Source: Escherichia coli (GTDB taxonomy: Bacteria; Pseudomonadota; Gammaproteobacteria; Enterobacterales; Enterobacteriaceae). From it: a DNA stretch of 64,000 bases. The position numbers are program-made. Positions 32,301 to 35,300 of this stretch are shown here, one piece after another (positions within the stretch are counted from its first letter, which is position 1; each line of letters opens with the position of its first letter). The DNA lies in assembly GCF_045037415.1 (NCBI RefSeq), contig NZ_CP173438.1, one strand, 5' to 3'.

Positions 32301-35300
32301 ACTTAAGGCCTGAACAGCGGCGCGCTTATCGTTAAGGTAAGCGCGTTTTTTTACCCGCCAGGACAAGACTATGATAGCGTTGCCCTTATAGACGATCACA
32401 TTATCGTCCACTCCAAATTTGCGCAACTACTGTAGAGTGGTGTACTCCACAGCTTCTTTTAGGATCTCAACTTCCATTGTTTTCTTACCGAGCAAGCACT
32501 GCAACTCTTTTATTTATTTGTAGTGGTCAACAAAAACTGTAAGCGTCAACGGAGCACCGTATTGACGCTTATTTATTGGTGAGTACTACGTTCCATGGCA
32601 GGAGTTCGTCAACTCGGTTGGAAGGCCATTCCGGCAGTACGCTCAGGATATGGCGCAGATACGCTTCCGGATCGATACCGTTCAGACGGCAGGTGCCGAT
32701 CAGCCCGTACAACAGTGCTCCACGCTCGCCGCCGTGATCGCTGCCAAAGAACATAAAGATGATATGACCTTTATATACTCACTATAGCATTGGTGGGATA
32801 TTCCAGAGGAGGTCATCATGCATTCGGAAAATATTGCGGCTTACGTCGGGCTGGATGTGCATAAAGAAACGTTGGCGGTTGCTATTGCTGCACCTGAACG
32901 GCTTGGCGAAGTTCGTTATTATGGTACGATTAACAACGAAGCCCAGGCTGTACGTCGATTATTTCAGAAATTGCAGGGACTTTACGGAAACATTCTTTCC
33001 TGCTATGAGGCTGGCCCCTGTGGTTTTGGGCTATATCATCAACTCACAGCGATGAATATAAAATGCCAGGTTATTGCCCCTTCCCGCATACCAAAATCAC
33101 CGACAGACAGAATCAAAAATGATCATCGGGACGCAATTTCTCTCGCCAGGTTACTGCGGGCTGGAGAACTTACCCCTGTCTGGATCCCTGACCTGACTCA
33201 TGAAGCTATGCGGGATCTAATCAGAGCCCGTGCAGCAGCTAAACGAGACAGCAGAGTTGCCCGACAGCGAATTCTGAGCATGCTATTGCGAACAGACAAA
33301 CATTATGCAGGAAAGCACTGGACAGGAAAACATCGAACCTGGTTAGCTAATCAATCATTTAGTCAGCCATCTCAACAGATTGCTTTTCAACACTATTGTC
33401 AGAGTCTGGAGCAGATTGAAGATCGCATACTTCAACTCGACCAGGAAATATCTCGCCTGTTACCTGAGTGGTCTCTGTGCAATCTGGTCTGCCAGTTGCA
33501 GGCTCTTAAAGGTGTTGGTCAGCTAATTGCAATAACTCTGGTTGCTGAACTGGGTGATTTTTCGCGATTTTCCAATCCCAAACAGCTCATGGCTTTTCTG
33601 GGACTGGTGCCAGGTGAATATTCCAGTGGAAACAGTATTCGTCCCAGAGGAATAACAAAAGTTGGAAACAGCGAACTGAGACGTCTGCTTTACGAAGCCG
33701 CCTGGTCTTATCGTACACCTGCAAAAGTTGGGGCATGGCTTATATATTACCGACCGGACTCTGTAACACAATATTCCAAAGATATTGCATGGAAAGCTCA
33801 ACAACGATTGTGTTCTCGTTACCGAAGTCTGACAGCAAAAGGGAAAAAATCACAAGTAGCCATTACGGCGGTGGCTCGTGAGTTGACTGGATTTATGTGG
33901 GATATTGCACTTGCTGCCCAATCATCATTCAGTCAGCAGAAGCAAAATTAAACCCTGAAGCAGTCAGACACGGAATGAGTGATCCTCGTAAAAGAATTCA
34001 GGGAAGCCAGAATGCGCTAATACCTGCACGTAGAAAGAGGCCAGCTCACTGCGTAAATCGTCATGGGGCTAAAATCCCCGAATAAGAGTTTGTAAAATCC
34101 AAGATACAGTCTGACTGTTTCAGGTTCTTTAATCCGCGATATAACGAAGCTCCCGGAGCTGCGTAAGGTCTTTTTGGGCTTAATATTTGACAAAGGTCAT
34201 AAGAGTTTTTCTTTCCGAGACAGACTGCACGAAGCGCTCTTTCCGCAGCATTATTATCCGCCTCCGCCAGACCGTCATCACTGTAATAACAGAGGGCATC
34301 CCACTGATTCAGTACATAGCTGAACGCTTCGCCCAGTCTGGATTTTTTCGACAGCGTACCATTCTTCTCCACCATCCATTCATGCAGCGACGTCAGTAAC
34401 ACTTTGCTTCGCTGCTGCCTGACGGCAAGACGCTCTGACTCCGGTAATCCCCGTATTTCATCCTCGATGGCGTACAGTTCACTGATTCGCTTCAGGGCTT
34501 CTTCTGCCGTCGCACTTTTGCTGCTGATGTATACATCGTGGATTTTTCGCCGGGCATGGGCCCAGCACGCAACTTCTGTCAGTGCACCACCTTCACGTTC
34601 TGCACTGAACAACCTGTCGTAACCTGTGAACGCATCCGCCTGCAGGATACCCCGGAAGGGGCGGAGGTGTTGCTCCGGGTGTTTCCCCTGCCGGTTCGGC
34701 GAGTACGCGAACCAGACCGCTGGAGGAGATGACGAACCCACATTGCGATCATCCCGGACATACGTCCAGATACGCCCTGTTTTCGCCTTTTTCTGACCCG
34801 GTGCCAGTACCTTTACCGGTGTGTCATCAGTGTGAACCTTGCGGGTGTTCATTACATAACGGTACAGGGCATCATTCACCGGTGTCATTAACTGGCAGCA
34901 CGCGTCAACCCAGTTGGAGAGTAAGGCCCGGCTCAGTTCGACACCCTGGCGGGCAAAGATTTCACTCTGACGATACAGTGGCAGATGTTCGCAGTATTTT
35001 CCCGTTAACACGCGGGCAAGTAATCCGGGGCCCGCGATACCACGCTCTATCGGGCGGGACGGCGCCGGTGCTTCAACAATACAGTCACATTTTGTACAGG
35101 CTTTTTTTACCCGTTCTGTGCGGATCACTTTCAGGGCACTGCTCACCAGTTCCAGCTGTTCAGCGCTGACTTCCCCCAGATAATCCAGCTCACCGCCACA
35201 CTCCGGGCAACAGCTTTCTTCTGGCTCCAGGCGGTGTATTTCACGGGGAAGGTGTGCCGGTAACGGACGACGATGGCGCGACTGTCGCAACTGGCGGGGA

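Follow-up and report, generated by a model that had tools for sequence, protein, structure and literature searches.

Does the non-coding DNA that follows the transposase gene of the insertion sequence (IS) ISEc45 encode the RNA by which this element finds its target? The question is raised by a 64,000-nucleotide (nt) stretch of Escherichia coli DNA (RefSeq assembly GCF_045037415.1, contig NZ_CP173438.1), here called the window, in which a copy of ISEc45, an IS110-family element, interrupts the tnpC gene of an IS66-family element. We found that positions 33954-34124 of the plus strand very probably encode the bridge RNA (seekRNA) of ISEc45. A first-pass annotation, made from the window alone, had proposed a candidate bridge or seek guide RNA in this tail. 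That proposal was supported by a match to a covariance model of relatives (R1), by covariation in the helices, by covariation of the loops with targets and element ends, and by Supplementary Table 5 of Durrant et al. 2024, where the entry for ISEc45 reads 'Detected Bridge RNA End: RE; group IS1111'. Earlier work had already described this type of RNA, where it lies in IS1111-type elements and that ISEc45 has one. A nucleotide-level assignment of guides, the target logic and the allelic guides are added here: for ISEc45, both target guides and one donor guide are now legible base by base, and we propose a second donor guide. The literature searched yielded no guide assignment, target or structure published for ISEc45, and the RefSeq annotation leaves the 254-nt tail blank.

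Predicted RNA structure in the 3' tail

An inverted repeat about 140 bp apart had been noted in the tail. Its arms (33954-33969 and 34109-34124) proved to be 16 nt long, 94% complementary and 139 nt apart, a stronger repeat than had been claimed, and they form helix P1, which closes a predicted RNA of 171 nt at 33954-34124 (plus strand). On the sense strand, the lone mismatch of P1 in ISEc45 becomes a G.U pair. The 171-nt RNA folded with -55.6 kcal/mol, compared with -37.3 +/- 3.9 for shuffled sequences (z = -4.70), and none of 200 shuffles was as stable. Structure prediction, one of the checks put forward with the original proposal, gave in this way a closed multi-helix RNA. For the whole 254-nt tail, z was -2.4 for the sense strand and -1.3 for the antisense strand.

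In the minimum free energy structure, the target-binding arm (33976-34048, plus strand) consists of P2, P3, a large internal loop and P4 with an apical hairpin. P2 pairs 33976-33980 with 34044-34048, P3 pairs CCUC at 33984-33987 with GAGG at 34037-34040, and P4 pairs CAGG at 33999-34002 with CCUG at 34023-34026. Both P2 and P3 covary in the alignment of relatives. A conserved hairpin, B (GGGG-CUAAAAU-CCCC, 34065-34079, plus strand), stands between the two donor guides and was present in about 65 of 80 relatives.

Conservation of the predicted RNA in relatives

Relatives were collected by tblastn against plasmids, which gave many homologues at 44-60% identity, six of them fetched, and by a scan of one genome per species, which added 80 loci (47-71% identity). 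Metagenomes scanned for the right end of ISEc45 gave 52 loci, and another five E. coli copies were retrieved. For model R1 we used 42 relatives with transposases at most 59% identical, omitting ISEc45 and its two closest relatives. R1 matched 33972-34112 end to end with 45.6 bits (E = 1.9e-9, 64 kb searched), on the plus strand only. A second match, at 21793-21881 (14.9 bits), lay inside a 272-amino-acid open reading frame (ORF) and was taken as chance; there were no others in the 64 kb.

Within the closing helix, the MAFFT alignment showed a conserved core made of P2, P3, a large internal loop with a variable hairpin at its end and, mostly, a helix GACG/CGUC around hairpin B. Across 40 sequences the four core helices were 93.9% paired, compared with 34-54% when the 3' partners were slid, and changes on both sides that kept the pair were found in 41 cells against 9.1 in shuffles (0 of 500 shuffles reached this number). 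For hairpin B, 98.8% of cells were paired and a C-G to G-C exchange was seen in 8 sequences. Nearly all relatives had a long closing helix 3' of the stop codon, of a sequence different in each element; the 62 distinct RNAs had 48 different arm sequences, with a median length of 17 bp. Because the helix sequence differs in every element, MAFFT and RNAalifold missed it on full-length RNAs, and it was scored separately. A lack of conserved structure or covariation had been named by the first-pass annotation as evidence against a guide RNA. We found instead that the helices covary and that R1 matches the tail.

The inverted repeats might act as DNA and not as RNA, either as transposase-binding sites or as a cruciform near the right end. 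Subterminal inverted repeats at the DNA level do occur in IS1111-group elements, and the antisense strand of the tail folds fairly well, as its z score shows. However, the non-Watson-Crick positions of the closing helix in the 62 relatives were 69 G.U and 29 A.C, as expected for a sense RNA and not for duplex DNA, which points to folding of the sense strand as RNA. As the sense strand also folds better than the antisense strand, and R1 matches the plus strand only, there is very little chance that the repeats act as DNA. An ORF of 62 amino acids at 33897-34085, which overlaps the end of tnp, also appeared in the ORF listing and could be read as a small protein encoded by the tail. Here, however, conservation follows helices and loops and not the frame, the spacings between conserved blocks vary by non-multiples of three, and the GTG start lies inside tnp with no obvious ribosome-binding site seen. 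A protein-coding function of this ORF is hardly conceivable.

In L009, the closest relative but one (66% identity, a gammaproteobacterial metagenome-assembled genome), the RNA was absent directly after the stop codon. The sequence after the stop, from position 3643 of this locus onward, looks coding and resembles another transposase, and the tail may have been interrupted by a further insertion.

Predicted guide sequences across the family

Comparison of sequences divides the RNA into two binding regions: an internal loop for the target and, around the conserved hairpin, a proposed junction for the donor. We followed the guide definitions given by Durrant et al. 2024: pairing with the bottom strand defines left guides, pairing with the top strand defines right guides, and the core is part of every guide. 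The loop segments covaried with the flanking target and the ends of each element in about 30-45 relatives. The right-target guide scored 5.81 with cognate and 3.74 with non-cognate sequences, the left-target guide 4.43 and 2.99, and the right-donor guide, which was weaker than the others, 3.94 and 3.27; 0 of 5000 permutations reached the observed value in each of these cases. The left-donor guide scored 4.33 and 0.73 (78 of 5000 permutations, 6 types only). Opposite-strand controls were null (1469/5000 and 4682/5000).

The right-target guide occupies the 5' side of the internal loop and is complementary to the core and the right flank. Examples of this pairing are CAAGAAUU with AATTCTTG in L010, CCGAUGAU with ATCATCGG in L085, GUGCCCUGUU with AGCAGGCCGC in L021, GGCACU with AGTGCC in L033, GGACACU with AGTGTCC in L072, and AUAACCU with AGGTTAT in L077. 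The left-target guide, found directly ahead of GAGG on the opposite (3') side of the loop, repeats the left flank and core (AGCCAG, AGGUAG, GAGCAG, UCGAAG, UUCCAG); thus L085 has GAGCAG in both places, and L011 has AGGUAG for a flank of AGGTAG. On the 5' side of hairpin B, the candidate right-donor guide complements the core G and the first bases of the left end, as in UGGUC/GACCA, GGGU/ACCC and AUAUCAU/ATGATAT. The 7 nt after hairpin B form the left-donor guide; they are identical to the 7 nt with which their own element ends, and this 7-mer changes with the right end in relatives (AUAUCAG, AUCGGAG, AUGAGAG, AUAAGAG).

All 44 elements compared had AG as the core at the left junction. The right-junction core was AG in 36, AA in 6, AT in 1 and CG in 1, and the left-donor guide keeps AG. 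The second base of the right-junction core may come from the target, and non-AG cores may be tolerated through G.U pairing; alternatively, the elements with non-AG cores are decayed copies. The observation refers to the relatives L007, L010, L011, L015, L025, L046, L056, L063 and L069 and to the E. coli copy L143.

Insertion site and predicted guides of ISEc45

The stretch 32755-34204 (1450 nt) gave 100% megablast matches annotated as 'IS110-like element ISEc45 family transposase', and at least 80% of it was found in 586 of 5,426 complete E. coli genomes; ISEc45 matches in these genomes number about 2170. By megablast and by comparison with an uninterrupted ISEc23 tnpC, the IS is 1447 bp long and lies on the plus strand within 32757-34205, with its ends at 32757-34203 or at 32759-34205. 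The interrupted gene is tnpC, coded on the minus strand, of an ISEc23-like element. The empty site in the uninterrupted gene reads ...GCCAAAGAACATAAAG|TTTTTCTTTCC, i.e. ...CATAAAG|TTTTTC, and the occupied site reads CATAA[AG]ATGATATGACC...GGTCATAAG[AG]TTTTTC. AG is found once in the empty site and once at each junction of the occupied site, and target duplication is absent. The ends are ambiguous by 2 nt because the AG core is common to both junctions. According to the empty-site comparison, the left target half-site with the core (AAGAACATAA+AG) is at 32747-32758 and the right target half-site (TTTTTCTTTCC) at 34206-34216, both given on the plus strand; the reconstituted target encodes ...LGKKNFMFFGSD.

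The right-target guide GUAAAAGAAUU is located on the 5' side of the loop at 33988-33998 (plus strand). Its last 7 nt, AAGAAUU, pair with AGTTTTT of the top strand, i.e. the core and the right flank. An absence of complementarity to the flanking IS66 target had also been named as evidence against a guide RNA; the 7 bp formed here are such complementarity. At the E. coli copy L143 the guide pairs 10/10 with AATTCTTTTT; there the right flank TTCTTTTTCC is preceded by AA, and it matches a variant right-target guide, AAAAAGAAUU, at 10/10 positions.

The left-target guide, CACGUAG, is on the 3' side of the loop at 34027-34033 (plus strand). It has the top-strand sequence of the left flank and core and therefore would pair with the bottom strand. 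The guide for the top strand (right-target, 33988-33998) is placed 5' of the guide for the bottom strand (left-target, 34027-34033), which is the IS1111-type order. Where other ISEc45 copies have CACGTAG as left flank, the guide agrees with it at 7/7 positions. An optimal left half-site ending in CACGTAG (codons K-N-Y-V) was predicted from the RNA and then found at about 8 metagenomic copies, inserted at ...GAACACGTAG|TTTTTCTTTCC in tnpC variants encoding KNYV. Other metagenome copies were inserted at CAGGTAG, CATGTAG or CATAAAG. The metagenome copies lie in IS66-family tnpC, and a few contigs have unrelated or rearranged flanks. Several copies carry a second left-target allele, CAUAUAG; these were mostly at CATAAAG or xATATAG sites and none was at CACGTAG, an association that is anecdotal because the contigs are not independent insertion events.

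In the donor-binding region, a candidate right-donor guide, AUCGUC (34057-34062, plus strand), has one G.U pair in its pairing with GATGAT, which is made up of the core G and the 5 nt that begin the left end. The fourth base of the left end varies among ISEc45 copies: ATGAT is found here (32759-32763), and ATGGT in variants of 97-99% identity (among L141-L144) and in the Vibrio relative L008. Both ATGAT and ATGGT are able to pair with AUCGUC, through U:A or U.G. The left-donor guide, AUAAGAG (34082-34088), has the sequence of the final 7 nt of the IS, core included, and is followed by UUU, the same three bases with which the right target flank begins; guide and extension occupy 34082-34091 on the plus strand. 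The resulting 10-mer ATAAGAGTTT recurs as a direct repeat across the right junction at 34199-34208, a repeat that the first-pass annotation did not mention. As a handshake-like extension into the right flank, UUU had a small signal in the family (1.24 versus 0.93 identities of 3; 35 of 10000 permutations), and we did not adopt it as an established contact. The analogous extension of the left-target guide was not significant (945 of 10000 permutations).

It had been predicted that loops of the RNA would pair with the IS66 target. This was borne out for 7-9 nt on each side of the AG core; the distal sequence TGTTCTTTGGC, which had been included in that prediction, is not contacted. GUUCUUU at 34124-34130 could be matched to AAAGAAC in the distal left flank, near TGTTCTTTGGC. 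This match was rejected: it lies outside the conserved RNA, it has no counterpart in L008 or L017, and about one such 7-mer match is expected by chance between 254 nt and a target of about 40 nt on two strands.

Rearranged copies were seen in gut metagenomes. In L088 (4857-5048), a full ISEc45 is followed by a second copy of its last 172 nt, and the junction, ...ATAAGAG|AAAGAGGCC, falls at DNA encoding the left-target guide (CACGTAG|AAAGAGG). In L091 (right end at about 12057, minus strand) the right end is joined at left-donor-guide DNA, and in L107 (right end at about 56, minus strand) the join is at ACAAG|TAGCC, within tnp. Since guide-coding DNA carries the sequence of a half-site, it may act as a pseudo-target.

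Objections and the untranslated-region alternative

Several observations weigh against a guide RNA at 33954-34124. Most relatives enclose the donor region in a helix GACG/CGUC that ISEc45 does not form, its pairs being marked non-canonical in the match to R1; in ISEc45 the donor region therefore lies directly in the junction closed by P1. The right-target pairing in this copy needs G.U pairs, as 2 of its 7 bp are G.U. CACGUAG matches the local left flank CATAAAG at 4/7 positions plus one wobble only. The right-donor guide is short (6 bp), and its register varies between relatives. The permutation tests take no account of relatedness among the elements; the opposite-strand controls carry the same relatedness, yet were null. 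No promoter-like site was found on the plus strand inside the linear element. Joining of the ends gives TTGACA, 17 nt and TATGAC (identified by eye), of which TATGAC is within the left subterminal inverted repeat (32763-32772), and the -10 of this circle junction is weak. Most relatives have TTGAC with the same spacing from the element end. Finally, Rfam 15, searched with 32000-35000 at E values up to 10, yielded no bridge RNA family; none of its 5 hits to E = 10 is credible, as all were far below the gathering scores, and the sole one touching the tail was Xist_exon1 (12.3 bits, E = 5.1, 33939-34034). Model R1 matched the tail, as described above.

The poor local fit of the left-target guide could have arisen by mismatch tolerance, by exchange of flanks through homologous recombination between copies or by conversion of the guide region. 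Hybrid flank pairs exist among ISEc45 copies. A shifted register, UAGAAAG against CATAAAG, would give 6/7 in this copy. Such a register departs from that of the family and takes up the initial G of the conserved GAGG stem, and we keep it as a possibility only.

The tail might be merely the folded, untranslated 3' part of the tnp mRNA that serves as a stabiliser, attenuator or terminator, has no guide function and owes its matches to shared ancestry. The missing internal promoter and the poor left-target fit agree with this explanation, as does a GC hairpin with a nearby T-run at 34148-34175 (plus strand, outside the guide RNA). This hairpin, AGCUCC-C-GGAGCU, corresponds to the palindrome AGCTCCCGGAGCT at 34148-34160, and UUUUU follows after 10 nt, at 34171-34175. 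Because the T-run begins 10 nt past the stem, it does not make a canonical terminator, and none was found in the linear element. We did not retain the two motifs as a terminator: many relatives have some GC hairpin in the spacer of about 77 nt after the RNA, but the spacers of 42 relatives were not significantly structured (median z = -0.46). The region 34148-34175 may be a 3'-end or terminator-like element. The near-palindrome and T-run reported near the right junction are thus both present, and they are neither part of the guide nor a canonical terminator. Against a plain untranslated region, it is the loops and not the stems that change with the flanks and ends of each element, and they do so in a strand-specific manner. 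A left half-site was predicted from the RNA before it was seen at natural copies, and related elements were shown experimentally to need such an RNA (Siddiquee et al. 2024, PMC11187229). We regard an untranslated region without guide function as very improbable, and retain the bridge RNA as the explanation of the tail.

Targets in IS66-family genes

In IS66-family TnpC, the reconstituted targets of ISEc45 and of four relatives (from Vibrio, Nitrosomonas, Limnoglobus and a Rhodobacteraceae genome) all encode ...DNN.AE......G(R/K)K(N/S)(W/Y/F)(L/M)F. The left flank, which is the one flank on a partial Ensifer contig (L012), agrees with this tnpC site, and the target of L045 corresponds to the CW.H.RRKF codons of the same protein family. 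By comparison of sequences, the predicted guides would direct ISEc45 to the G-K-K-N-(Y/F)-(V/M)-F codons in IS66-family tnpC. The specificity for IS66 transposase genes suspected at first reading is accounted for in this way. In L085, the reconstituted target contains the codons S-E-E-Q-I-I-G-M, which we take to resemble IS3-family orfA. L085 and L045, other members of the clade, likewise lie within mobile-element genes.

If the guide reading is true, the CACGUAG allele would favour CACGTAG|TTTTTCTTT and the CAUAUAG allele CATAAAG|TTTTTCTTT; a further target variant is CATGTAA|TTCTTTTT. E. coli populations would then carry allelic guides that fit different target variants. We tentatively suggest that the ISEc45 clade is an RNA-guided IS lineage aimed at conserved codons of the transposase gene of another IS, with natural guide reprogramming within E. 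coli (CACGUAG and CAUAUAG fitting different tnpC variants) and occasional recombination at its own guide DNA. If so, ISEc45 would be an IS1111-type system natively active in E. coli with a readable guide code, a description of which was not found in the literature. Bridge and seek RNAs make IS110-family transposases programmable DNA recombinases, and each well-read natural case extends the rules of guide design. The 254-nt tail merits a non-coding RNA gene label in genome annotation.

Beside the complete tnpA/tnpB/tnpC set of the IS66-family element, a diverged, shortened second IS66-type tnpA-like ORF was observed (36770-37006 and 36007-36432; 78 amino acids, ...NDNLLFKWLRLW...). It suggests remnants of another IS66-family element beside the first.

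Transposase, element layout and proposed mechanism

The ORF expected at 32818-33951 (plus strand) was found there and encodes a DEDD RNA-guided transposase of 377 amino acids. It matched NF033542 'IS110 family RNA-guided transposase' with 278.9 bits (cut-off 140) and contained PF01548 (E = 2.3e-15, N-terminal DEDD/RuvC-like) and PF02371 (E = 7.9e-23, C-terminal Transposase_20). The GL-P----S/T-G motif of the IS1111 group is present in the ORF translation as GLVPGEYSSG. The short left end (32759-32817, plus strand) includes the right-donor half-site ATGAT at 32759-32763, the left subterminal inverted repeat and a ribosome-binding site, GGAGG, at 32808-32812. The right end (34187-34205, plus strand) includes the -35-like TTGACA at 34187-34192, the right subterminal inverted repeat and the left-donor half-site ATAAG+AG. 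The subterminal inverted repeats, which had gone unmentioned, are TATGACCTTT (32763-32772) and AAAGGTCATA (34192-34201) and match 10/10; each begins 4 nt inside the 32759-34205 ends, within the range of the IS1111 group (about 7-17 bp). The non-coding DNA before tnp measures 59-61 nt and that after it 254 nt (33952-34205), as in the IS1111-group layout. The IS1111-type layout of the first-pass annotation is upheld by these lengths, and its estimate of about 250 bp downstream agrees with the 254 nt measured; the left end is short as stated, its length of about 64 bp being corrected to 59-61 nt by the empty-site comparison.

Full-length relatedness to the IS1111 transposase at 330-350 amino acids was not found for ISEc45. 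As described by Siddiquee et al. (2024, PMC11187229), IS1111-type transposases have 330-350 amino acids and are tightly clustered, and the ISEc45 transposase is 15-24% identical to the others in their matrix. ISEc45 lies outside this tight cluster because of its 377 amino acids and its identity of just 15-24%. Its transposase belongs to a deep clade with ISCARN28, ISSso6 and IS1533, a clade that ISfinder and the tables of Durrant et al. 2024 nevertheless label IS1111.

A mechanism can be proposed by analogy with IS621 and ISEc11. ISEc45 would be excised as a circle, the junction of which would supply the promoter TTGACA-17 nt-TATGAC; in the IS1111-family seekRNA elements of Siddiquee et al. 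(PMC11187229), a promoter is formed at the circle junction. Transcription would proceed through tnp into the RNA, so that the RNA would be made as the 3' part of the tnp transcript and be bound by the DEDD transposase. The RNA would then bring the abutted circle ends together with the target, and the transposase would exchange strands at the AG common to circle junction and target. Strand exchange at a common AG would account for insertion without duplication.

Comparison with known systems

Among the elements for which Durrant et al. 2024 draw a predicted bridge RNA, ISCARN28 (IS1111 group) is in the same transposase clade as ISEc45, with 41% identity over about 357 amino acids. Its bridge RNA is in the right end, downstream of tnp, as in ISEc45, but the two differ in host and target. 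According to the same paper, donor-binding nucleotides are found in a multi-loop in many IS1111 orthologues; ISEc45 resembles these in having its proposed donor guides around hairpin B in a multi-loop.

The seekRNAs of ISEc11, ISKpn4 and ISPa11 described by Siddiquee et al. (PMC11187229) share with ISEc45 the downstream non-coding region, the subterminal inverted repeats and insertion without duplication. Their top-strand match is also 5' of the bottom-strand match, the two overlapping at the insertion point, as in ISEc45. Close relatives in that study were naturally retargeted by changes of guide, which may be compared with the two left-target alleles of ISEc45. The transposases differ, being tightly clustered at 330-350 amino acids in those elements, with 377 amino acids and 15-24% identity to matrix members in ISEc45. 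The RNAs of ISEc11, ISKpn4 and ISPa11 were shown experimentally, whereas that of ISEc45 is predicted here from comparison of sequences. Siddiquee et al. describe target matches, and donor guides are assigned here for ISEc45.

IS621 (IS110 group; Durrant et al. 2024, Hiraizumi et al. 2024) has in common with ISEc45 a 2-nt core, a DEDD transposase with a Tnp domain and, possibly, a handshake-like extension of one guide. Its RNA, however, is in the left end, upstream of tnp, and that of ISEc45 is downstream. The order of the guides in the target loop is reversed between the two, and the donor region is a simple internal loop in IS621 but a junction around a hairpin in ISEc45. The core is CT in IS621 and AG in ISEc45, and the subterminal inverted repeats are long (10 bp) in ISEc45, unlike those of IS621.

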